From positions 414 through 64,413 of the forward strand of contig JAMNZB010000030.1 of NCBI GenBank assembly GCA_023622515.1: 64,000 bases of DNA, in the 5' to 3' direction. Positions 1,200-35,547 of the stretch are shown piece after piece (position 1 is the stretch's first letter; each line of letters begins with the position of its first letter). The notes below the pieces were generated by a model. The model was not told the DNA's origin. It worked only from the letters and a program-made list of their open reading frames with translations, and did no database searches. Position numbers and translations under genes: made by a program. The DNA comes from Bacillota bacterium (lineage in GTDB: Bacteria > Bacillota > Clostridia > Saccharofermentanales > DTU023).

Positions 1200-1228
1200 T
1201 TGATAAAGGACCAGGAGAGGAGTATAAT
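1200..1228 (+). promoter_or_regulatory. sigma-A type promoter candidate for the aspS-gat operon
   Basis: TTGATA (1200-1205), 17-nt spacer, TATAAT (1223-1228). This predicts a leader of about 270 nt. Confidence 0.45.
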
Positions 1229-1422
1229 CAAGCGGCATGTCTAATATTTATACAATCGCCCAATGGCCATCCGGAATCTTTACCCTGAAACTTTGCCGGT
1301 AGACCGGGAGGAAGATCCGATACTAAGGGGAGAGAGGAACGGCAAGTCGCCAGAGACTTGTCCGTTTGGCCGGCACGTTGAATTTTAGCCCCTCGTCTCT
1401 TTGGGTCGGAAGCTTTTGACGA

Positions 1423-1479
1423 TTCCCGGCCGGAGCGGGAGCGTGCTAATCCTTCATCCCTTTGGGCCGGGAGTTTTTT
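1423..1479 (+). terminator. intrinsic terminator inside the aspS leader (attenuator candidate)
   Basis: CCCGGCC (1425-1431) pairs with GGCCGGG (1465-1471) and is followed by T6 (1474-1479), 24 nt before the aspS ATG. GGCCGG at 1368-1373 can pair with the same CCGGCC instead, giving a possible antiterminator. Confidence 0.55.
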
Positions 1480-1502: not shown

Positions 1503-3608
1503 ATGAAAGACTTTTCTAGAAGTCACTATTGCGGAAGAGTTAGGGAATCAGACAAAAATCATTGGGTCACCACCATGGGCTGGGTACAGACCAGAAGGGA
1601 TATGGGCGGGGTAATTTTCATTGATTTAAGGGACAAGACGGGAGTCCTCCAGCTGGTGTTTGACCAGCAAAATTTTGATGAAATCCGCTTCAAACAAATT
1701 GAACGTTTTCGAGCAGAATATATCATTGCTGTTAGAGGGCCTATTAGAGAACGGGATGCAGAAACCTATAACCCAAAAATTCCAACGGGAACCGTCGAAC
1801 TTGAGGTGAAAGAATTTGAACTTCTTTCCAGAGCTAGAACACTCCCCTTTCCCATAGATGACAAGGTGGAAGTCAGAGAAGATTTGAGGCTGAAATATCG
1901 ATATTTGGACCTCAGGCGGCCAAAAATGTTTCAAAACTTTCTCTTGCGAAACCAAGCGGTAAAGAGCATTCGACATTATTTGGAAGGCCAGGAATTTTTG
2001 GAAGTAGAAACGCCCGTTCTAACCAAGAGTACGCCGGAAGGGGCCAGAGATTATCTGGTGCCCAGCAGAATCCATCCGGGTGAATTCTATGCCCTCCCCC
2101 AATCCCCCCAAGTCTTTAAACAGTTGTTGATGCTGGCCGGTTTTGACCGCTACTACCAAGTAGCCCGCTGCTTTAGGGATGAGGATTTAAGGGCGGACAG
2201 GCAGCCGGAATTTACTCAAATAGACCTGGAGACGTCCTTTTTAAGCAAGGAAGAAATATTAAATATCTTGGAAGACTTGTTCAAAAGAGTCTTTAAAGAT
2301 GTCCTGGATATAGAATTTAAAGACCCTTTCCCCAGAATGACCTACCAGGAGGCTATGGCCTCCTACGCTTCCGACAAACCGGACCTGCGCTTCGGCATGA
2401 AAATAGTCGATGTGACGGAAGAAGTTGAAAACTCCAGCTTTAAGGTCTTTACCGATGCTTTAAAGGCCGGAGGCCGGGTGCGTTCTATCAATATTAAGGG
2501 GGGTAATAATTTAACCAGGACGAAAATCGACAACTTGACCGACAAGGCCATTGCCTACGGGGCAAAGGGGATGGCCTGGATTGGCATAGATGAGAACAGA
2601 AATCTAAGAACTATCTTGACCAAGTATTTTTCTGAGGAAGACATGGAAACCCTTTTGAGAAAAATGGAGGCCGAACCGGATGACTTGCTGATTTTCTGTG
2701 CGGATACCTTAGAGGCCATCTACAAGATTCTTGGACCCTTAAGGCTGGATATCGGAGATATGTTTGGCCTAAGGAAGAAAGATGATTATAAATTTTTAAT
2801 GGTGGTCGACTTCCCCCTCTTTGAATATTCTAAGGAAGAGGGCAGGTATCTGGCCATGCACCACCCTTTTACCATGCCGGTGGCCGAAGATATCGATAAA
2901 ATGGAAAACGATCCCTTGAGTGTCAGGGCCGAATCTTATGACGTGGTATTAAACGGAATTGAATTGGGTTCCGGTTCTTTAAGGATCCACCGCCCGGACA
3001 TTCAAGAAAGCCTGTTTAAAGTGCTTGGTTTTAGTGAAGAAGAAATCGACAAGCGCTTCGGCCACCTGATCCGGGCCTTCCAATACGGGACTCCGCCCCA
3101 TGGCGGCTTCGCTTTCGGTTTAGACCGCTTGGTCATGTTAATGGCCCAAGAAGACAGCATTCGGGAAGTTATCGCCTTCCCTAAGAATAGGGAGGCGGAG
3201 TGCCTCTTAACCAATGCGCCTAGTCCTGTCGACGACCGGCAGCTGCAAGAGCTGAATATTGGAGTCCTTTCAAAAGACGGCAGGGTTGAAGATGCCGCTG
3301 CCGGTGAGAAAAGTGAGTATAAAGAAAGTATCGACATCGAAGCCTATGCCGAAATGGCCATGCTGGCTCTAGATTCCACTTCCCGATTACGTTTTGAGAA
3401 ATATATTAGCGAATTTATCGTTAGGACAAAGGAATTAAGAGGACTGAATCTAGAAGCTCATCAACCCACAATCAACGTCCATCCCATCATAAATTCAACA
3501 AGGCCGGATGAAGTTGTTTCGGACTTGACCAGGGACGAAGTCTTGGCCGGAACGGATAGGACAGAAGAAGGCTATATCCTGGTTCCCAGAATCATTGAAG
3601 AAAATTAG
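1503..3608 (+). CDS. aspS: aspartate--tRNA ligase with a fused C-terminal GatC-like domain
   Basis: Class II AspRS motifs are present (FRDEDLRADRQPEFTQID, GSGSLRIH, GGFAFGLDRLVML). The last ~93 aa (nt ~3327-3605) follow the GatC pattern. I chose ATG 1503 because the AAGGAG at 1486-1491 overlaps the track's GTG 1491. Confidence 0.9.
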   Translation: MKDFSRSHYCGRVRESDKNHWVTTMGWVQTRRDMGGVIFIDLRDKTGVLQLVFDQQNFDEIRFKQIERFRAEYIIAVRGPIRERDAETYNPKIPTGTVELEVKEFELLSRARTLPFPIDDKVEVREDLRLKYRYLDLRRPKMFQNFLLRNQAVKSIRHYLEGQEFLEVETPVLTKSTPEGARDYLVPSRIHPGEFYALPQSPQVFKQLLMLAGFDRYYQVARCFRDEDLRADRQPEFTQIDLETSFLSKEEILNILEDLFKRVFKDVLDIEFKDPFPRMTYQEAMASYASDKPDLRFGMKIVDVTEEVENSSFKVFTDALKAGGRVRSINIKGGNNLTRTKIDNLTDKAIAYGAKGMAWIGIDENRNLRTILTKYFSEEDMETLLRKMEAEPDDLLIFCADTLEAIYKILGPLRLDIGDMFGLRKKDDYKFLMVVDFPLFEYSKEEGRYLAMHHPFTMPVAEDIDKMENDPLSVRAESYDVVLNGIELGSGSLRIHRPDIQESLFKVLGFSEEEIDKRFGHLIRAFQYGTPPHGGFAFGLDRLVMLMAQEDSIREVIAFPKNREAECLLTNAPSPVDDRQLQELNIGVLSKDGRVEDAAAGEKSEYKESIDIEAYAEMAMLALDSTSRLRFEKYISEFIVRTKELRGLNLEAHQPTINVHPIINSTRPDEVVSDLTRDEVLAGTDRTEEGYILVPRIIEEN

Positions 3609-3622
3609 AAAGGGGGGCTCAG

Positions 3623-4804
3623 ATGAACACTAAGCAAAAATATTTGGACTATTTTGATAGGCTGGAAATGGATCAGGAAAAGATGTCAGCCTATAAGACC
3701 CTATGCAAGGATCAGGCTACAGAGGCCTTAGAAAACAACCCGGCACCCTTCCCTGTTGTCTTTTCCGACCTTATCTCTAGCCAAGGAATCCGAACCACAG
3801 CCAATTCCAAGATGCTTGAAAACTACATCCCTCCTTTTGACGCCACCATCGTAGAAAGGGTCAAAAAGGCCGGTGGAATCATTTTAGGCAAGACACTCAC
3901 CCGGGAATTCGGCGTCGGCGAAACAAAAAATCCCTTCGGCACTTGTACTGCCGTAGCCCATGGCGAAGATATTATAGGCTTTTCAACAGGCTATAAGGGG
4001 TCAGTGTATTTTGGTGCACACACATACGGGCTCTTTGCCTATCAGCCAAGCTATGGCCTCGTCTCTCGATACGGCATCATCCCGGTTGCCTCCTCCCTGG
4101 ACAGGCCGGGGATTATAGCCAAAAGCTTTGATAAGCTAGCTCAAGCTATGGCTATAGTAGCCGGAAAAGACGAAAGGGAGGGAAGCACTTTACCCTGTGC
4201 AATCAATTTTTCAAACTTAGAAAAGCTCAACACAAGCGGAATTAGACTGGCCAACATCAGCAGCTTTAAGGACTTTGAAAGAATCGAAGAATTCTTAAAG
4301 AAATTTGATTTATCTGTGGCCAAAGCCCAAGTCAACTCTTTAAAATATGCCTTGCCGGCCTATGAAATCCTCTCTGCCGGGGAATTTGCCAGCAATATGC
4401 AAAGATATGACGGTATCAGCTTTGGCTATCGGGCTGAAGAATATAATAATGTCGAAGAGCTCTACAAGAAGACCAGGACCGAGGGCCTGGGCAAGGCCGT
4501 TCAAGAAAAAATCATCCTGGGAAATTTCCTTTTAAGTAAAGGAAACTACGAGGCCTATTATGTTCAGGCTATGAGAGCCAGGACCATGATTAAGGAAGAG
4601 TTAGAAAAAGTGTTGGCAACACATGAATTTTTCCTTGGTCCGGTCAAGCTTGATTACCTTATTGCCTTGGATTTGGCAGGCCTGCCCGGCCTGTTCATAC
4701 CCTTCGGAAAAGAAGGCTTGCTAATAAGCACCGGGGCCTTTAATGATAAGAGATTATTAGAATTTGGCAAGAAACTGCTTGCCCAAGGGGGAGGTGAGCA
4801 ATAA
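3623..4804 (+). CDS. gatA: GatA-like amidase-family subunit, shortened and with a degenerate catalytic signature
   Basis: 393 aa. Clear GatA homology in ..TTANSKMLENYIPPFDATIVERVKKAGGIILGK.., ..PSYGLVSRYG..ASSLD.., ..RYDGISFGYR..ELY..TR.EG.G..V. The GGSSGGS block is missing. GGGGGG SD upstream. Confidence 0.8.
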   Translation: MNTKQKYLDYFDRLEMDQEKMSAYKTLCKDQATEALENNPAPFPVVFSDLISSQGIRTTANSKMLENYIPPFDATIVERVKKAGGIILGKTLTREFGVGETKNPFGTCTAVAHGEDIIGFSTGYKGSVYFGAHTYGLFAYQPSYGLVSRYGIIPVASSLDRPGIIAKSFDKLAQAMAIVAGKDEREGSTLPCAINFSNLEKLNTSGIRLANISSFKDFERIEEFLKKFDLSVAKAQVNSLKYALPAYEILSAGEFASNMQRYDGISFGYRAEEYNNVEELYKKTRTEGLGKAVQEKIILGNFLLSKGNYEAYYVQAMRARTMIKEELEKVLATHEFFLGPVKLDYLIALDLAGLPGLFIPFGKEGLLISTGAFNDKRLLEFGKKLLAQGGGEQ

Positions 4805-6228
4805 TGGGAAAAAAGTATGAAACCGTTATGGGCTTAGAAGTACACGTGGAACTGAAAACAAAGACAAAGCTCTTCTGCTCTTGTTCCACCAAGTTTGGGC
4901 AAGACCCTAACGTCAATACCTGCCCTGTTTGCCTGGGGCTTCCGGGAGCGACCCCGGTCTTAAATGAAAAAGTTCCGGACCTGGCTGTAAAGGCCGGGCT
5001 GGCTACCCATTGTAAAATCACACGGCTAGGCAAGCAGGATAGGAAGAATTACTTTTATCCCGACTTATCTAAAGGTTTTCAAATTTCCCAGGACGATTAT
5101 CCCATTTGCTACCAAGGCTATCTGGATATCGAGACATCCCGGGGCAAAAAAAGAATAGGAATCACCAGGATGCATATTGAAGAGGATGCGGGAAAACTGG
5201 TTCACGAGGCAGGACTGGGCAGCCTCGTTGACTACAATAGGGCAGGAGTTCCTCTCATAGAAATCGTATCCGAGCCTGATTTGCGATCGGCTGAAGAGGT
5301 TCTGGCCTATTTACGGAAACTAAGGGCCATATTAACCTACACCGGCGTTTCCGATGCCAAAATGAATGAAGGGTCTTTTCGCTGTGATGTAAACCTGTCG
5401 GTCAGGGAGCTGGGCGATGAGACATTTGGCACCCGGGTTGAGATGAAAAACCTAAACTCCTTCCAATCCATTCAGCGGGCCATTGAATATGAGGCAGCCC
5501 GTCAGATTGAAGCCATAGAGGCCGGAGAAAGGATTATCCAAGAAACCAGAGGCTATTCCCAGGACAGCAGAAAAACCTACTCCATGAGGGCCAAAGAAGA
5601 CGCCGCCGACTATCGCTTCATGCCTGAACCGGACCTCATGCCCATCGTCATTACGGAAGAAAAAATAAAAGAGTTGCAGGAGTCTTTGCCGGAATTACCC
5701 GATAGCAGAAAGACCAGGTATATCGAAGAATACGGACTTAGCCACTATGATGCCGAGCAATTGACTTCCTCCATAGAGCTAGCCGGCTTTTTTGAAGAAA
5801 CGCTTGCTTGCGGAACAGATCCTAAGTCTGCGGCCAATCTCATCATTACAGAGCTCTTCCGACTAACCAGCCCGGAAGATTTCCAAGTGCCTGTAAAGCC
5901 GGCAGACTTTGCCCGGCTTATCAGCTTTGTCGAAAATGGCCGGATAAACTTAGGCAGTGCGAAAAAGATTATAGAAATCATTTTTGAACAGCCTGAAAGG
6001 ACACCGGAAGCCATCATCCTGGAAGAGGACTTAGAACAAATCAATGACCGAGACCTCCTGTCGAAAATCATTGATGACGTCCTGAGTCGCAGCGAAAAAG
6101 CCCTTGCCGAGTATAAGGGGGGAAAGAAAAAGGTCCTTCAAGCCATCATTGGTCAGATTATGGGGCAAACGAAGGGCAAGGCCAACCCCCAACTAACCAT
6201 TGCGATATTAAAGGAAAAAATCGGCTAG
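4804..6228 (+). CDS. gatB: Asp-tRNA(Asn)/Glu-tRNA(Gln) amidotransferase subunit B
   Basis: 474 aa with canonical GatB features (GLEVHVEL, CPVCLGLPG, DRKNYFYPDL, C-terminal YqeY-like tail). TAATG overlap with gatA. Confidence 0.95.
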   Translation: MGKKYETVMGLEVHVELKTKTKLFCSCSTKFGQDPNVNTCPVCLGLPGATPVLNEKVPDLAVKAGLATHCKITRLGKQDRKNYFYPDLSKGFQISQDDYPICYQGYLDIETSRGKKRIGITRMHIEEDAGKLVHEAGLGSLVDYNRAGVPLIEIVSEPDLRSAEEVLAYLRKLRAILTYTGVSDAKMNEGSFRCDVNLSVRELGDETFGTRVEMKNLNSFQSIQRAIEYEAARQIEAIEAGERIIQETRGYSQDSRKTYSMRAKEDAADYRFMPEPDLMPIVITEEKIKELQESLPELPDSRKTRYIEEYGLSHYDAEQLTSSIELAGFFEETLACGTDPKSAANLIITELFRLTSPEDFQVPVKPADFARLISFVENGRINLGSAKKIIEIIFEQPERTPEAIILEEDLEQINDRDLLSKIIDDVLSRSEKALAEYKGGKKKVLQAIIGQIMGQTKGKANPQLTIAILKEKIG

Positions 6229-6480: not shown

Positions 6481-7965
6481 TTACAACTTCCTTAATTTTT
6501 CTCGAATCTTCTCTTCCTCTTTGAATATTTCCGGATCATCCTCATAGAAAACCTTGAAATTGGGGTCCACATCCTTACCCGTTATATACCTGGACTTATA
6601 GTCCTTTAATAAGTCCGTAAATTTATCTCTAAGTATGAACAAGGCAAGCAAGTTGAAGAAGACCGGTAAGACAATGACAATATCCACTATCGTCCAAAAC
6701 ATTTCAGGCCCATGTCCCTGCAAGACGATTGTTGTTACCACAAAAATATTTATCGCCGGGAAAACTATCTTGAAGATGAGGGCAAAGGCATCTCTAAGCT
6801 TGGGCTTGTATCTGAACATATACTGAATGACAGCATTATAATAGGTGTACCAACCTGATGTGGTCGTCACGCCGAATAAAATAATCATTATTCCTATAAA
6901 CACTTCCCCAAATCTTCCAAAAACCGAGTTATAAGCAAAAATGGTCAAAGTGGCCCCCACACTGCCGCTCTCTATCGAACCGGTAGACAGGATTGCCAGG
7001 GCAGTTATTGAACACACAACCAGCGTGTCAATAAAAACCTCAAATGCTCCCCACAGACCTTGTCTTACAGGATGGACAGTTGTTGCCGAACCATGAATAA
7101 AGGGAGATGCTCCTTGGCCTGCTTCGTTACTGTTAATCGACCTCGATATGCCCTGCCTTATGGCCTGGGCAACTACAGAACCCGTAAATCCGCCAATGGC
7201 CGCCGAACCGGTAAATGCATCATGAAATATTGAATAAAAAACTGAGGGAATAGATTTAATGTTTAAAGCTATGATAACTAATCCGCCAATTAGAAATGTC
7301 ATGGTCATAAAGGGAACGGCCCTAGAGGCAAAACTGGCTATTTTCGGAACACCTCGCCATATAACATAATATATTATAAGTGTGTAAAGAACTGTAGTGG
7401 CAATCATATTCCAGCCAAATACAGTATTTAAGACTTCCGATACAGTATAGGCCTGTGATCCCTGTAGGCATTGCATTAAGAAGAATACTCCGAAAATTGT
7501 TGCCAAGGGATAGCCAAACTTTTTGCCCATCTCACGACCTATACCCTTTTCAATGACATGAGTAGAACCTCCGTAGAACTCGCCTTTTTCGTTTTGCGAG
7601 CGATAGTAGCAGCCTAAAGTAACTTCTACCATCTTCACCGTCATACCGACCAGGGCCCAAAGCCACATCCAAAAAACAGCTCCCGGTCCTCCAACCGCTA
7701 TAGCTGTAGCTACTCCACCAAGGTTTCCGGTCCCAACACAACCACCTATGGCGATTGATACCGCTTCAAACGGTGAAATTTGCCCCGCCTTTTTATCATG
7801 CGCTTCCTTACTCGTCAAACTTCCCAACGTATGTTTCATTATGTGTCCAAAATGAGTAATACTAAAAAATTTTGATTTTATAGTAAAATACACACCGGCC
7901 AACATGATAAAAATTATGAAGGGGTAGTTCCATAAAAATTCACTTATCTTTGTTAAAATTTCCAT
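6481..7965 (-). CDS. alanine/glycine:cation symporter (AGCS family)
   Basis: 494-aa polytopic membrane protein with the typical AGCS N-terminus (..FLWNYPFIIFIMLAGVYFTIKSKFF..) and ..ISPFEAVSIAIGGCVGTGNLGGVATAI... GAGGAG SD. Confidence 0.9.
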   Translation of the reverse strand: MEILTKISEFLWNYPFIIFIMLAGVYFTIKSKFFSITHFGHIMKHTLGSLTSKEAHDKKAGQISPFEAVSIAIGGCVGTGNLGGVATAIAVGGPGAVFWMWLWALVGMTVKMVEVTLGCYYRSQNEKGEFYGGSTHVIEKGIGREMGKKFGYPLATIFGVFFLMQCLQGSQAYTVSEVLNTVFGWNMIATTVLYTLIIYYVIWRGVPKIASFASRAVPFMTMTFLIGGLVIIALNIKSIPSVFYSIFHDAFTGSAAIGGFTGSVVAQAIRQGISRSINSNEAGQGASPFIHGSATTVHPVRQGLWGAFEVFIDTLVVCSITALAILSTGSIESGSVGATLTIFAYNSVFGRFGEVFIGIMIILFGVTTTSGWYTYYNAVIQYMFRYKPKLRDAFALIFKIVFPAINIFVVTTIVLQGHGPEMFWTIVDIVIVLPVFFNLLALFILRDKFTDLLKDYKSRYITGKDVDPNFKVFYEDDPEIFKEEEKIREKLRKL

Positions 7966-8182
7966 TGTTCAATAATCTCCTCTTCTTCTATGTAAGACCG
8001 CAACAATAAGACAACACATCATGCGCATTAATTAATAAGCGCAAACAACAATCCTTCAATATTGCAAGAAGGTAAAAATGTAATTAGAGAGAGTATATTG
8101 TCTCTAGCAACAAGAGAGTCAATAACTTGTATAAAAAGCATGTAACACTCTCTTGGGTTCGATAAATAAAAATTAATAAAGG

Positions 8183-8228
8183 TGAATAAAAACAAGTCCG
8201 ATGGAAAGGTTTGACAGTAGTACTTGTT
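8183..8228 (-). terminator. terminator-like hairpin within the long symporter leader
   Basis: On the minus strand AACAAGT..(24 nt)..ACTTGTT is followed by TTTTTATT, about 220 nt upstream of the symporter ATG. Confidence 0.4.
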
Positions 8229-8426
8229 GGATGGCGATGTCTTTCGCACTAGTCTTCTTGCCGGGAAATTTGCTTTCTTGACTTTATAGCTACTATACAC
8301 TTTACAATGAGTTTTATTAATATAGTTACTTAGATTGCTACATTATCATGAAAATTATTAACTCAACAATAGGCATTTTTTTGCAACTGCCCCCTGTTGA
8401 ATTATACGAAAGGAAAGATTTTAAGT

Positions 8427-9620
8427 ATGAAAAAAGAGGATAAGAAATATTCAGACGCATCAGAATTATTGTACTGCGGAAAGACATTCGATTGGATGGA
8501 GATTGAACCGGAGGCAGCCCCGCTCTTTGCCAGTACTGCGTTTGTAATGAGAAATTTTCCTGATGTCCACGAGGCATACAAGCAAGGATACACCTACATA
8601 AGAAAAAATAATCCCAACCGTGATTCATTGGCTTCTCTGGTGAATTATTTGGAAGAGAGCGAAGACACGCTAATCTTTTCATCCGGTATGGGAGCCATCA
8701 CAACCACGGTACTAAGCCTTTTAAAATCAGGCGATCACATTATCTGCAACAGGAATATCTATGGCGAGACCTTCGATTTATTCATGGAACTCTTACCCAA
8801 ATTCGGTATAGAAACTTCTATGGTTGACTTTGATAATCCGGATAATGTGCGCAATGAATTGAAAGCCGAAACAAAGCTCATCTATTCAGAAGTTCTCGCT
8901 AATCCGACGCTGAATATCGCGGATATAGAAGAGCTCGCTAAAATCGCCAAGTCTCAAAATGCCCTGCTTATGATTGATAATACTTTTACCACTCCAATAG
9001 CGATAAAGCCTATCAAACACGGCGCAGATATTGTTATTAACAGTTTAACCAAATTTATGAGCGGTCACAGCGATGCTATAGCCGGCTCAATAAGCGCCTC
9101 AAAAGAGATAACAGATAAAATCAGAACGGTAAGAATGCTGGTCGGAACTTCCGGAGACCCCGTAGCCTCTTGGATGATGTTAAAGGGCATGCAGACGGTT
9201 GACTTGAGACTTAGAAAACAAATGAAAAATGCAGCCATACTGGCCCAGTTTTTTGAAAGTCATAAACACGTCAGTAAAGTGAATCACCCCAGCCTGGAAA
9301 GCTTTGCCCAACATGAACTGGCCTTGAAGATTTTCAGAACTAAAGAAGAGATATCGGGTATGCTCAGTATCATCGTCCCCGAAGACGAAGAGAAAATTAA
9401 TGAATTCATGAAAAAACTCCACTTTGCCCACTATGCCCCGACTTTAGGTGGACTGCGGACCTCTTACCAGCATCCGGTTACTTCCTCTCACAGCCATATG
9501 CCGGACAAGGATAGGCGGAAAATGGGTATAACCCCCGGCATGCTCAGAATATCGGTTGGAATAGAAGATGTTGAAGACCTAATGCAAGATTTCGAACAGG
9601 CCTTGTCTGTTTTTGACTGA
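8427..9620 (+). CDS. Cys/Met-metabolism PLP-dependent enzyme (cystathionine gamma-synthase / methionine gamma-lyase family)
   Basis: Family pattern with the PLP-lysine motif NSLTKFMSGHSD and C-terminal ..LRISVGIEDVEDL... I chose ATG 8427 (GAAAGGAAAG SD) over the track's TTG 8397. Confidence 0.85.
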   Translation: MKKEDKKYSDASELLYCGKTFDWMEIEPEAAPLFASTAFVMRNFPDVHEAYKQGYTYIRKNNPNRDSLASLVNYLEESEDTLIFSSGMGAITTTVLSLLKSGDHIICNRNIYGETFDLFMELLPKFGIETSMVDFDNPDNVRNELKAETKLIYSEVLANPTLNIADIEELAKIAKSQNALLMIDNTFTTPIAIKPIKHGADIVINSLTKFMSGHSDAIAGSISASKEITDKIRTVRMLVGTSGDPVASWMMLKGMQTVDLRLRKQMKNAAILAQFFESHKHVSKVNHPSLESFAQHELALKIFRTKEEISGMLSIIVPEDEEKINEFMKKLHFAHYAPTLGGLRTSYQHPVTSSHSHMPDKDRRKMGITPGMLRISVGIEDVEDLMQDFEQALSVFD

Positions 9621-9661
9621 TTTACTCATTAGACCTGGCATATAGCTATCGCCATACACAA

Positions 9662-9700
9662 AGTCATTTTCCTAACCCTTTTAGGAAAATGACTTTTTAA
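9662..9700 (+). terminator. intrinsic terminator
   Basis: AGTCATTTTCCTAA / TTAGGAAAATGACT stem followed by TTTTAA. Confidence 0.8.
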
Positions 9701-9836
9701 ATTAAAACTGTATCTTTATTAATAGTTACTCTCCATTAATCTATTATTGCACAAGCAAACGCTCCCTTCCTGCCCCCTTCTGTGGATTGTTTTCGCAGTA
9801 TTATTTTGGAATACCACTTTTTTACAGCATCTTGTC

Positions 9837-9865
9837 TTGACAATAAAAATCTATTAATATACAAT
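9837..9865 (+). promoter_or_regulatory. sigma-A type promoter candidate for the MerR gene
   Basis: TTGACA (9837-9842), 17 nt, TACAAT (9860-9865). Confidence 0.5.
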
Positions 9866-9940
9866 TCTCGTTAGTTCGGGCTAACTCTCTGGCGGTCAGC
9901 CAACAGTTATTTTCACTGTAAGTTAAAGGAAACGGATAGT

Positions 9941-10753
9941 GTGAAAAAATACTTATCCATTGGAAAAATTGCAAATATCGTGGGCCTTTCTGTCCAAACT
10001 ATCAGGTATTACTGTAATATCGGCTTGTTAAAGCCGGTTTATGTGAACCCCAATAACAACTATAGATATTTTGATGTTAAGCAGATTCAACTGATTGATA
10101 AAATTAAATATTTACAAAATCTCGGAATGAGTTTGCAGACGATCAAGCACATAATCTTGAACGAGGACGCAGATAGTTTGGTAAGCCATTTGAATATTGC
10201 CAAAAAGGAATGCACTAAAGAAATTAATAGGTTACAGGACGTCGCAGATAGTATTTCTTGGTACAAAAACTATATTTCATACCCCAACTGCCAGGAATCC
10301 GAAAGATGCTATTGCATCAAAAATATGGATCTACGCTATTTATTTGCAGTAGAGCACAAGAGTGGGGAAACAGATGAAGATTTATATGCCAAATTTTACA
10401 GGCTGAAAAACTCAGGACAATATAAGGACTTAAATTATCAAGGACAAATTTGCTATATCCTTGACTATGATAGCTTTATCAAAAATCAAATCCATCTCAT
10501 AAAGCTAGGAATGCCGGTAAAAGAGCCGCCTAAAAATCGTGAACATATTTTAAGAGTAGAAGAAGGAAAGTATTTATGTTTTCAACAGAATGATTTGTCC
10601 CAAGATTGGGATACAGCTTTTATCAGCTGTTTTTTCAAAAAAGCTTCCGAATATATATTGGCCTTCGAGTTTAGGAAAAGTTTTCATAATCCCAATGATT
10701 CCATTTATGAGTTTCAAATTCATATCAACGGAACGGAAGAAGGCAGCTTATAA
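9941..10753 (+). CDS. MerR family transcriptional regulator with a C-terminal effector-binding (GyrI/BmrR-like) domain
   Basis: N-terminal MerR HTH (YLSIGKIANIVGLSVQTIRYYCNIGLLKP), a coiled-coil linker and a ~150-aa C-terminal domain. GTG start after AAAGGAAAC. Confidence 0.85.
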   Translation: MKKYLSIGKIANIVGLSVQTIRYYCNIGLLKPVYVNPNNNYRYFDVKQIQLIDKIKYLQNLGMSLQTIKHIILNEDADSLVSHLNIAKKECTKEINRLQDVADSISWYKNYISYPNCQESERCYCIKNMDLRYLFAVEHKSGETDEDLYAKFYRLKNSGQYKDLNYQGQICYILDYDSFIKNQIHLIKLGMPVKEPPKNREHILRVEEGKYLCFQQNDLSQDWDTAFISCFFKKASEYILAFEFRKSFHNPNDSIYEFQIHINGTEEGSL

Positions 10754-11026: not shown

Positions 11027-12478
11027 TTAAGGCCGGTTGACCACACCGACAAAGAGGGGGACACCATCGTGACCCTGGACCACAAAAAGGAAGGGCCGGT
11101 CCAGGAAAAAGTCAACCGTTTCCTCCGGCGGCATACCCGCCCCAAGAAGCATGAGTGTGTAGGCGGCTCCGGTAACACCGTCTTCGTCGACCATGACCCG
11201 GGCGGCATGCTTAGCACCGGAAAGGTAGACTTGCGCGTCCTCAGAAGTGGGAGAAAAGTCGGCTGCAGCAGTGAAAACCTTATGGACTCCCAGCTCTTGC
11301 AGGGCCTTCCCCAAGGCTATTTCACTCATGACATCAAATTTAGGCAGTTTGAAATTCACAGTCAGAAACTTTTGCTGCTCATAGGCCAAACAGTCCTCTA
11401 AGAGGGCATCCACTTGGGGGTTAGCCAATAATTCTTCCGGCCGGACACCCTCATCAGGCAGGAAAAACCACATGTTTCCGGCATAGGTCAAGCCTTTACT
11501 TATGGCGGCAAAATTGTCTCCCCAGTAGTAGCTATTGGGACGAGACTCAGACATGAAGCCCGTTTCCACAGGACCGGCAGACGAATGAAAAGTGCCCGGG
11601 GCCGTATCCCTCTTGCTAAATTCACTGTCCCACTTAGCTCGGAAGAGGATGGTAGAGGCCAGGGCCATTAAGCTGTTCTCATCGAAAGCTGCGCTGTCGA
11701 CGCTGGACTCCAAGAGATTATCGGTCTGTTCGTTCAGCCACTCCTGCAGCCGGTCTGTCATGGCCGCACTGCCCATATCCCCTTGGAAAGCAGATGCTTT
11801 GTAAGTGTCTTGCAGAATCTGCAGGGTCTCTTTCTTAATGGAGAGGCCGTGATGAAACCAGACCGAGTTGGCTAGGAGGCTTGTCGTAAAGCCGTCGTTC
11901 ATATAGTGGGCCTGCCAAAGAGAATGGGCCTTGGCCCGCAGCTCCTCAATCGTGTCAACACCGACCACCCCTAAGACTTCTTCCCGTGTAGCACCGGCAG
12001 TCATTTCCGCCAAGAGACTCAGGGCCATGTAGATGTTAAGGGGCGAATAAATGCGGTTTTCCTCATCATCAGCAAGAAGTAGGGGGTTGGCCTCACGGGC
12101 TAGGGCCATAACGCCTTCCTGGTAGCCCTGAGGCTGGTCGCGCAGCCTTCGTACATCAGAGTTCCAGAGCTTATAGGCCTTATTGTAGACCTCGTGGTCC
12201 ACATTTGAACAGCCCAGCAAATCTTCTTCATGGGGATGGTCATGCATAGCAGGGTACTCAGGTGCAGCAAGTGTCTTTACACTTGATGCGGCAACGCCCC
12301 TTGACCAAGCCAGACTCGGAATGAAGAGGACTCCGGTCAGTATGAGGGTCAGAACAACCAGCCCGGCTCCAAGCCTCTGCCGGAAAGAGGGCTTCTTTTT
12401 CCGTCCTAGCGGCCCGGACTCTGTAATGGGCTTGCCATCCGGTTTTCTCATAGCATCTCGTAAGTCTTTAAGTTTCAT
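11027..12478 (-). CDS. serpin (I4 family serine protease inhibitor), N-terminally membrane anchored
   Basis: Serpin core motifs (..YSPLNIYMALSLLAEM.., ..STILFRAKWDSEF.., hinge/RCL ..VDEDGVTGAAYT.., C-terminal ..FLDRPFLFVV....PLFVGVVNRP). TM segment LGAGLVVLTLILTGVLFI near the N-terminus. AAGGAGGG SD. Confidence 0.9.
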   Translation of the reverse strand: MKLKDLRDAMRKPDGKPITESGPLGRKKKPSFRQRLGAGLVVLTLILTGVLFIPSLAWSRGVAASSVKTLAAPEYPAMHDHPHEEDLLGCSNVDHEVYNKAYKLWNSDVRRLRDQPQGYQEGVMALAREANPLLLADDEENRIYSPLNIYMALSLLAEMTAGATREEVLGVVGVDTIEELRAKAHSLWQAHYMNDGFTTSLLANSVWFHHGLSIKKETLQILQDTYKASAFQGDMGSAAMTDRLQEWLNEQTDNLLESSVDSAAFDENSLMALASTILFRAKWDSEFSKRDTAPGTFHSSAGPVETGFMSESRPNSYYWGDNFAAISKGLTYAGNMWFFLPDEGVRPEELLANPQVDALLEDCLAYEQQKFLTVNFKLPKFDVMSEIALGKALQELGVHKVFTAAADFSPTSEDAQVYLSGAKHAARVMVDEDGVTGAAYTLMLLGAGMPPEETVDFFLDRPFLFVVQGHDGVPLFVGVVNRP

Positions 12479-34155: not shown

Positions 34156-35547
34156 TTATTCAGAATCAGCCAGAGCTTCCGGGTCTAAAATTTTGTCTAG
34201 ATCGTCTTCTGTGAAATCGGTTTCGCGGAGGACCACTTCACGGACAGTAGCCTCTTCTTCCATGGCCATCTTAGCGATTTCTGCGGCTTTTGTATAACCG
34301 ATATGGGGGCAAAGGGCTGTGATCATGATTAAACTGTTCTCCAGGAGCTCAGTGATTTTCTTTTCATTTGCGCTGATACCCTCTACACAGTTTACCCGTA
34401 AGGTAAGAGCGGCCTGGCCAAGACTTTCAATAGACTCAAAAAGATTGTAGAAAAGCACCGGTTCAAAAGCATTCAACTCAAATTGACCGCCCTCAGCGCA
34501 CATGGTAATAGTTACATCGTTGCCGATAATATTAAAGGCTACCTGGCTGACAACCTCCGGGATGACGGGGTTAACCTTGCCCGGCATAATAGAGGAACCG
34601 TTTTGACGCGGGGGAAGATTGATGATGGAGTATCCGGCACGAGGCCCTGAAGACATTAGACGCAAGTCATTAGACATTTTAGAAAGGCTGACGGCACAGG
34701 TCTTAATAGCGGCAGAAACCAGAACAAAAGCATCCAGGTTTTGTGTGCCGTCAAAAAGATCGGCAGCGGTTTCCATGGGGTAGCCTACAACTTCACGCAA
34801 GCACTCATTGATAACTTCCATGTATTCCTTGGAGGCATTGATACCTGAACCGATTGCTGTACCGCCCATGTTATTCACATACATGTATTTCTTGACCTCT
34901 TCAATCTGGCCAATGTCCCGCTTTAAGGCCTCGGCATACGCCTTGAAGGACTGGCCGAGTCGCATGGGTACGGCATCCTGTAACTGGGTGTAACCCACTC
35001 GGATAATGTCGTGGAACTCTGCCGCCTTAGCACGCAAGGCCTTTTCTAAATCCTTAAGCTTGGGGAGCATATCATCAATCAGATGGAGAACCGTTAATTT
35101 TCCTGCTGTAGGAAAGACATCATTGGTTGATTGAGACATGTTGACATGGTCATTGGGATGAACCGGGTCATAGGAACCTAACTCGCCGCCTAAAATTTCT
35201 GTTGCCCGGTTGGCAATCACTTCGTTGGCGTTCATGTTTGCTGAGGTACCGGCCCCGCCCTGGATGGGGTCGGTTATGAAATGATCATGGAATTGACCGG
35301 CAATAATTTCCTCACAGGCTTGGATAATAGCCTCACAACGTTTTTCATCAAGTGTCCCGGCTCTTTTATTGGCCTTGGCAGAAGCTTTCTTTACTTTTGC
35401 CAAACTGACAATCATTTCCCTTCTTAATTTTTGGCCGGTAATGGGGAAGTTGTGCTCGGCCCGTTTTGACTGAACACCGTAATATGCCTCAGGCGCAATT
35501 TCCAGCGAACCAACAGTATCTCTTTCAATGCGTTTTCTTGTTTCCAT
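34156..35547 (-). CDS. aspA: aspartate ammonia-lyase
   Basis: Fumarase/aspartase family with the SS loop GSSIMPGKVNPVIPE (aspartase-type PV.PE) and ..TSANMNANEV.., ..SQSTNDVFPT... Confidence 0.88.
   Translation of the reverse strand: METRKRIERDTVGSLEIAPEAYYGVQSKRAEHNFPITGQKLRREMIVSLAKVKKASAKANKRAGTLDEKRCEAIIQACEEIIAGQFHDHFITDPIQGGAGTSANMNANEVIANRATEILGGELGSYDPVHPNDHVNMSQSTNDVFPTAGKLTVLHLIDDMLPKLKDLEKALRAKAAEFHDIIRVGYTQLQDAVPMRLGQSFKAYAEALKRDIGQIEEVKKYMYVNNMGGTAIGSGINASKEYMEVINECLREVVGYPMETAADLFDGTQNLDAFVLVSAAIKTCAVSLSKMSNDLRLMSSGPRAGYSIINLPPRQNGSSIMPGKVNPVIPEVVSQVAFNIIGNDVTITMCAEGGQFELNAFEPVLFYNLFESIESLGQAALTLRVNCVEGISANEKKITELLENSLIMITALCPHIGYTKAAEIAKMAMEEEATVREVVLRETDFTEDDLDKILDPEALADSE

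Follow-up and report, generated by a model that had tools for sequence, protein, structure and literature searches.

The standard example of substrate channeling is the transamidosome, which prevents mischarged Asp-tRNA(Asn) from reaching the ribosome; those known so far are non-covalent assemblies. Among the clostridia, Clostridium acetobutylicum reportedly carries an aspS-gatCAB transamidation operon under the control of an asparagine-specific T-box, said to have been described by Saad et al. in 2012 (JBC; cited in PMC4206432). Within the amidotransferase GatCAB, GatA belongs to the amidase-signature enzymes; in its triad of Lys79, Ser154 and Ser178 (S. aureus numbering), Ser178 is the nucleophile, and GatC is required for the folding of GatA and for the GatA-GatB complex (PMC2330236). 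Here we describe an operon of three genes at positions 1503-6228 of a 64,000-nucleotide stretch of DNA from a Bacillota bacterium of the Saccharofermentanales (assembly GCA_023622515.1, contig JAMNZB010000030.1, positions 414 to 64,413). The whole stretch is called the window, and its own coordinates are used throughout. In this operon a fused aspS-gatC gene stands directly upstream of the gene for a shortened GatA without its catalytic triad, called GatA' here, and of gatB. The coding features, all on the + strand, are as follows.

1503..3269, + strand: AspRS body, residues 1-589, with an oligonucleotide-binding (OB) anticodon-binding domain, the class II core and the GAD insertion
3270..3329, + strand: linker, residues 590-609, SKDGRVEDAAAGEKSEYKES, 20 residues that match no family
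3330..3608, + strand: GatC domain, residues 610-701, and the TAG stop (TIGR00135 and PF02686, both over cut-off)
3623..4804, + strand: GatA', a 393-residue GatA-fold protein without the Ser-cisSer-Lys triad (TIGR00132, alignment, AlphaFold 2 model)
4804..6228, + strand: GatB, 474 residues (NF004012, GatB_N, GatB_Yqey)

The fused synthetase and its GatC domain

On the + strand, an uninterrupted open reading frame begins at 1491 (GTG) or 1503 (ATG) and ends with the TAG at 3606-3608. The ATG at 1503 is the likely start of the fused aspS, giving a protein of 701 residues, because AAGGAG stands at 1486-1491 and the homologues begin MKDFSRSHYCGR. By its domains and its equivalog score, the first part of this protein is a bacterial-type class IIb aspartyl-tRNA synthetase. 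The NCBIfam aspS model NF001750 covers residues 4-589 with 841.8 bits (cut-off 443), and the boundary of this match places the end of the synthetase body at ...ELNIGVL589. Pfam recognizes tRNA_anti-codon (PF01336), tRNA-synt_2 (PF00152) and GAD (PF02938), and QSPQ, FRDEDLRADRQPEFTQ and GGFAFGLDRL can be read in the translation. The linker that follows is disordered in the AlphaFold monomer model, with a predicted local distance difference test score (pLDDT) below 50 over residues 588-607. Its sequence varies among homologues, while its frame and approximate length are preserved.

Beyond the linker, the gatC model TIGR00135 aligns over its positions 4-93, of 93 in all, to residues 610-699. Against a cut-off of 47.1 bits, the full-length protein reaches 48.1 and the isolated tail 52.4 (E 5e-14), a match well outside what chance would give; the fused relatives score 51-91 bits. 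The Pfam GatC family PF02686 is also found, at 25.9 bits in the whole protein and 28.5 bits in the tail (cut-off 23), and the tail aligns end to end with the free-standing GatCs of two related loci (L041 and L038; related loci bear L numbers here). These profile matches confirm the tail as a bona fide full-length GatC domain, in frame with a complete bacterial-type AspRS. In the monomer model, two GatC helices (612-618 and 625-646) precede an extended stretch of low confidence, which is what such a prediction would be expected to give for a strap peptide modeled without its partners. The sequence-only reading of this stretch had thus been accurate about the gene. It had given a frame of about 700 residues with the synthetase ending where NF001750 now ends, a linker of about 20 residues with GatC starting near nucleotide 3327 (the domain begins at 3330), and a gatA-like gene 15 nucleotides after the stop (its ATG is at 3623); the profile search of the tail that it had proposed is the one given above.

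Conservation and selection

A protein search with the fused AspRS among 5.8 billion clustered proteins was followed down to its best 120 matches, each a cluster at 90% identity. These relatives reach down to 53% identity and are all Clostridia; among them are Tissierellaceae, Peptoniphilaceae, Peptostreptococcaceae, Oscillospiraceae and Saccharofermentanales. Almost all (118/120) are at least 680 residues long, and a precomputed GatC domain (PF02686) is recorded in 112/120. The assemblies behind these clusters come from NCBI, JGI, ENA and Logan. In every relative whose locus was fetched (at least 20), the fused gene is followed by a gatA-type gene and gatB, and the order is that of the window in L001-L007, L035, L036, L037, L039, L041 and L042. 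Ratios of nonsynonymous to synonymous substitution (dN/dS) were computed against the closest relative, L035, at a dS of about 0.3. They are 0.10 for the AspRS body, 0.32 for the linker, 0.26 for the GatC domain, 0.23 for GatA' and 0.085 for GatB, which indicates that the linker and the GatC tail, too, are under purifying selection.

These data bear on the a priori possibility that the fusion is an assembly or sequencing artifact, in which a stop was lost or a frameshift introduced between a normal aspS and a normal gatC. That possibility is the only thing that speaks for an artifact, and we consider its probability negligible. The in-frame architecture recurs in more than 110 clusters from four sources of assemblies as well as in every fetched relative, the linker is under selection, and a curated NCBIfam model for such fusions exists. 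With this architecture of about 700 residues present in over 110 independent clusters at 90% identity and in at least 20 fetched loci, and with linker and tail under selection, no resequencing is needed to exclude a missed stop or a frameshift. The survey of related genomes suggested by the earlier reading therefore comes out on the side of a genuine fusion.

A GatA without its glutaminase triad

The gene after the fusion is where the earlier reading has to be amended: a gatA-like partner is indeed encoded downstream, but instead of a normal GatA it is a shortened form that has lost the triad. On the gatA equivalog TIGR00132, GatA' scores 243.7 bits in three stretches and does not reach the cut-off of 481. 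When it is aligned to solved and canonical GatAs, the catalytic lysine is seen to be replaced by serine (FSDLI in place of IKDNI). Also missing are a stretch of about 20 residues with the GGSSGGS motif in it and two further segments near the C-terminus, and the protein is about 90 residues short overall. The position of the nucleophile is occupied by serine in the window and by S, A, F, L, Y or D across the clade. The lysine and GGSSGGS are absent from all 24 clusters of the 393-residue clade and from three further loci; K, GGSSGGS and TGGSIRxP are retained in every one of the more than 90 canonical GatAs examined. The canonical triad is also present in GatAs that stand beside a fused AspRS-GatC, in L008, L010, L026, L030 and L033. 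From this alignment, GatA' is predicted to have lost its whole glutaminase active site and to be catalytically dead. An arginine, R320, aligns with the invariant arginine of the canonical KVRTLI motif.

In spite of these losses the protein is not decaying. Its length is constant across relatives of 49-87% identity, and the idea that gatA' might be a pseudogene was ruled out by this constancy across the clade together with its dN/dS of 0.23. The AlphaFold model has a pLDDT of 92.4, and the best structural matches found by Foldseek are GatA chains from crystal structures of the transamidosome and of GatCAB, 4wj3_A with a query TM-score (TMq) of 0.91 and 2df4_A with a TMq of 0.92; the AtzE-type complex 6c62 is also among the fold matches. 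As far as the model can tell, GatA' keeps the GatA fold, and it keeps the place of gatA in the operon, between gatC and gatB.

Triad-less short GatAs of 372-466 residues also lie between a fused AspRS-GatC and GatB in L036, L037, L039, L041 and L042. In a neighbor-joining tree of 13 fused proteins, the fusions with a degenerate GatA form one clade, apart from those with a canonical GatA. This single clade suggests that the fusion is older, and that GatA decayed once afterwards and shrank further later. The TIGR00135 scores differ between the two groups as well, being 48-52 bits in the degenerate-GatA clade and 82-91 bits in fusions with a canonical GatA, which would fit a co-evolution of GatC with its altered partner.

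An exhaustive search with GatA' was made against 1.84 billion representatives at 50% identity, and the 150 nearest were scored. The triad is complete in 80 of them (median length 485 residues), wholly absent from 37 and partly present in 33, in a sample that is skewed toward degenerate forms because the query itself is degenerate. A large and fast-evolving set of GatA-like pseudoenzymes is visible among these 150. Another setting for a degenerate GatA is seen at L038:2249-4520, where a triad-less amidase of 381 residues lies near a free-standing GatC and a membrane protein of 208 residues, with no GatB and no AspRS nearby.

GatB, the operon and its T-box in relatives

The third gene begins within the stop of the second (TAATG), and its product is predicted to be an intact and fully canonical GatB: it scores 633.5 bits on NF004012 (cut-off 338) and contains both GatB_N (PF02934) and GatB_Yqey (PF02637). 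No second aspS, asnS, lysS, gatA, gatB, free gatC, asparaginase or tRNA gene was found within the 64-kb window, which agrees with the earlier remark that no free-standing gatC precedes the gatA-like gene. A relative shows that the operon can coexist with a standard one. In L041 (GCA_900198705.1), a canonical ligA-gatC-gatA-gatB cluster with an intact triad lies at L041:2299-5470, 6 kb upstream of the fused operon, and at least in this genome the fused operon would fit the role of a second, specialized system.

The regulation of the operon in related genomes points to its substrate. In ten related loci, Rfam recognizes a T-box leader (RF00230) immediately upstream of the fused gene. In all nine alignments inspected (L002, L004, L007, L010, L033, L036, L037, L039 and L041), the codon-sized site that precedes the helix closing the specifier loop is AAC, for asparagine, and not GAC. 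With such a specifier, operon expression in those relatives would be set by uncharged tRNA(Asn), and the T-box supports a link between the fused operon and Asn-tRNA(Asn) synthesis. In L039, a second T-box leader (L039:7794-8044) is found downstream of gatB, ahead of a gene of 446 codons.

A proposed tethered transamidosome

The reading that we favor, with some confidence rather than much, is that the operon encodes a covalently tethered Asn-transamidosome in which GatA' would be only a scaffold and free ammonia would be the nitrogen donor. The three genes would then encode a dedicated Asn-tRNA(Asn) machine, in which a flexible linker some 20 residues long joins GatC to the bacterial-type AspRS. 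Like other class IIb synthetases, AspRS homodimerizes. The GatC strap from each synthetase subunit would wrap one GatA'-GatB module, and would do so permanently. Because AspRS is homodimeric and GatC straps GatA and GatB together, one such module is expected per synthetase subunit, which would give the covalently anchored composition (AspRS-GatC)2(GatA')2(GatB)2. In this particle tRNA(Asn) would first receive aspartate from AspRS; its acceptor end would then pass to GatB, to be phosphorylated and amidated there. The GatC fusion and the AAC T-boxes of the relatives suggest that the synthetase is non-discriminating.

GatA' would act as a structural subunit, and the nitrogen would come from free ammonia and not from glutamine hydrolysis; ammonia is the most likely donor because GatA' is without a glutaminase site. 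That the synthase half of such enzymes can accept ammonia has been seen in yeast GatFAB, where NH4Cl substitutes for glutamine in transamidation and where perturbing the GatA site raised the NH4Cl-dependent activity (PMC4027206). Judging by the titles of their records, many of the genomes that bear the operon come from ammonia-rich anaerobic digesters and guts, and we infer a possible link between such habitats and the use of ammonia. Extending the proposal from this locus to its relatives, that a large clostridial clade has a natural, glutaminase-less and ammonia-dependent amidotransferase, with a scaffold GatA and a GatC covalently tethered to its own AspRS, is plausible but still on the doubtful side.

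Several points weigh against this proposal. The assembly, the stoichiometry, the non-discriminating charging of tRNA(Asn) and the ammonia donor are all things that we infer from the genes. The GatC of the window is barely over its cut-off (48 against 47.1 bits), whereas the fusions next to a canonical GatA reach 82-91 bits. The search for other Asn-tRNA and amidotransferase genes covered only the 64-kb window. Upstream of the operon, Rfam gives no RF00230 match, either in the whole window at the gathering threshold or in 950-1550 at E<=5, and a terminator-like hairpin sits just before the ribosome-binding site.

The part of the proposal that concerns the donor has its own competitor, according to which an amide donor is still used, either because GatA' has rebuilt a hydrolytic site or because another protein delivers the ammonia. 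The R320 kept by GatA', at the place of the invariant KVRTLI arginine, would suit a rebuilt site, but across the degenerate clade there is no conserved residue that could serve as a new nucleophile or base. As for delivery, ammonia might be supplied by a canonical GatA from another gatCAB operon or by an asparaginase such as that of the Tissierellaceae. Both can be pointed to in related loci, since L041 has its canonical gatCAB 6 kb upstream of the fused operon, and since L036 and L041 have a type I asparaginase gene immediately upstream of the T-box; the archaeal glutaminase subunit GatD itself belongs to the type I asparaginase family (PMC2330236). On the other side, neither an asparaginase nor a second gatA is found in the window, the T-box leader stands between the asparaginase and the operon, and most loci lack the asparaginase. 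In addition, GatC is covalently bound to AspRS, and the operon provides its own GatA'. We judge continued use of an amide donor to be unlikely.

The leader of the window operon

Upstream of the fused gene, the window differs from those relatives in which a T-box is recognized. Three features precede the start codon.

1200..1228, + strand: promoter-like site, TTGATA-17-TATAAT, with 11/12 consensus matches, the best of the region
1236..1424, + strand: 5' leader, its 3' half like a decayed T-box, which aligns with Rfam-confirmed T-box leaders
1425..1479, + strand: strong hairpin followed by T6, terminator-like in its minimum-free-energy fold, an insertion directly before the ribosome-binding site

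The promoter-like site is conserved in L035. The leader was aligned with the T-boxes at L002:5733-5960, L004:937-1164 and L007:5728-5952. In the window, GGGTGGTACCGCG has become GGCCGGCACGTTG, the invariant GGGUGGUACCGCG now reads GGCCGGCACGUUG, and the AAC specifier region is gone. The region 1236-1502 thus looks like a decayed T-box. The hairpin, an insertion of about 60 nucleotides that is absent from L035, has a 3' arm that resembles 1393-1419, which suggests a local duplication of the old terminator segment; that it might be a repeated mobile element was rejected, as it occurs in a single copy in the window. In four close relatives (L001, L003, L005 and L006) the leader is deleted. T-box control is lost in these four as well as in L035 and the window, and the decay of its leader suggests that the lineage of the window gave up tRNA(Asn)-sensing control.

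This loss of control, the loss of the triad and the shortening of GatA could together be read as signs that the module no longer makes Asn-tRNA(Asn), whether as a decaying relic or because it has been reused for tRNA sequestration, regulation or other GatB-dependent chemistry. There is precedent for GatA-like proteins being taken over, together with GatC-like ones, by other chemistry, as in the AtzE-type complex 6c62, and L038 combines a degenerate amidase with a free GatC in the absence of GatB. However, the frames of all three genes are intact in every locus, dN/dS stays within 0.09-0.26, and the score of GatB is that of a full equivalog. The deep degenerate-GatA clade has also kept the gene order, the translational coupling and the Asn T-box. 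A relic or a reused module is thus distinctly improbable to us, and continued synthesis of Asn-tRNA(Asn) by a tethered complex is the reading that we keep.

Neighboring genes

Downstream of gatB, positions 6481-10753 of the window hold a sodium:alanine symporter, a pyridoxal phosphate (PLP) enzyme of Cys/Met metabolism and a MerR regulator. They lie between gatB and the gene of a bacterial serpin of 483 residues (11027-12478, - strand). The serpin gene is conserved beside the operon in L035, where it follows gatB directly and the three-gene block is absent. Farther away, a protein with Lyase_1 and FumaraseC_C domains, of the aspartase/fumarase class, is encoded at 34156-35547 on the - strand; if it is an aspartase, it would free ammonia from aspartate.

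In two Tissierellaceae loci (L036:2371-3342 and L041:8463-9434) a type I L-asparaginase gene stands directly upstream of the T-box and the fused operon, and is itself preceded by an SDF transporter and a protein of 405-410 residues without a Pfam match. As this arrangement is limited to these two loci and is absent from the window and most others, the asparaginase was rejected as a recurrent operon partner.

Comparison with known systems

The fusion is not a rare arrangement. A GatC domain is recorded in 112 of the 120 best clusters, and NCBIfam already contains the model NF009460 (PRK12820), named 'bifunctional aspartyl-tRNA synthetase/aspartyl/glutamyl-tRNA amidotransferase subunit C'. The AspRS-GatC architecture is therefore not new; it is widespread and already catalogued. 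The domain architecture of PRK12820 is identical to that described here, and fused homologues align across all 723 positions of the model, the GatC part included. Their scores are nevertheless far below its equivalog cut-off of 1379 bits, at 659.3 for the window protein and 620-685 for ten diverse fused homologues. Membership of the window protein in PRK12820 was rejected for this reason, and the clostridial fused family is another lineage than the one modeled. Public records name it only 'aspartate--tRNA ligase', and the relatives of GatA' are annotated 'amidase family protein/hypothetical protein', names that obscure the pathway and are thus a practical annotation issue. In the literature searched, beyond whose reach several key papers lay, no description of a natural AspRS-GatC fusion was found; nor was any report of a natural triad-less GatA found in that literature.

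The commonness of the fusion lowers its novelty, and the interest shifts to a GatA that is predicted to be catalytically dead but is selected. Such a protein would imply an essential non-catalytic role for the A subunit, in the folding or positioning of GatB and GatC. It would also mean that an amidotransferase could live on environmental ammonia, in parallel to the ammonia-dependent forms of other glutamine amidotransferases. A natural covalent transamidosome would offer a stable particle for structural work, and a test of whether tethering replaces tRNA-dependent assembly. If the proposal is true, this would be the first natural GatCAB without amide-donor hydrolysis and a permanently assembled transamidosome.

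The operon of C. acetobutylicum resembles that of the window in being clostridial, in combining an extra AspRS with an amidotransferase, and in the tRNA-dependent synthesis of Asn and Asn-tRNA(Asn) that is predicted for the window. It also shares an AAC T-box leader, which on the window side is found only in relatives. It differs in that, in the window, aspS and gatC form one frame, the GatA triad is lost and the T-box is unrecognizable. The Asn-transamidosomes of T. thermophilus (3KFU), P. aeruginosa (4WJ3) and H. pylori (PMC3367201) share with the window system an AspRS, in their case of the non-discriminating kind (ND-AspRS), and the GatCAB components, and the window system is predicted to fill an identical role; in structure, the GatA chains of those complexes come nearest to GatA'. 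They are, however, non-covalent and tRNA-dependent, or else transient (that of H. pylori is dynamic; PMC3367201), and their GatA is active as a glutaminase. The window system would carry one subunit covalently on the synthetase and a catalytically dead GatA. Ammonia-dependent relatives of glutamine amidotransferases and NH4Cl-driven GatCAB or GatFAB (PMC4027206) resemble what is proposed here, as their synthase half runs on free ammonia, but for the tRNA-dependent amidotransferases this is an in vitro bypass and not the natural state. Finally, in Mycobacterium smegmatis (PMC7541841) a gatC-gatA fusion likewise ties GatC covalently to a second protein of the pathway. This mutation was selected in the laboratory, links GatC to GatA and causes mistranslation, whereas the fusion in the window is natural and ancient, and links GatC to the synthetase.

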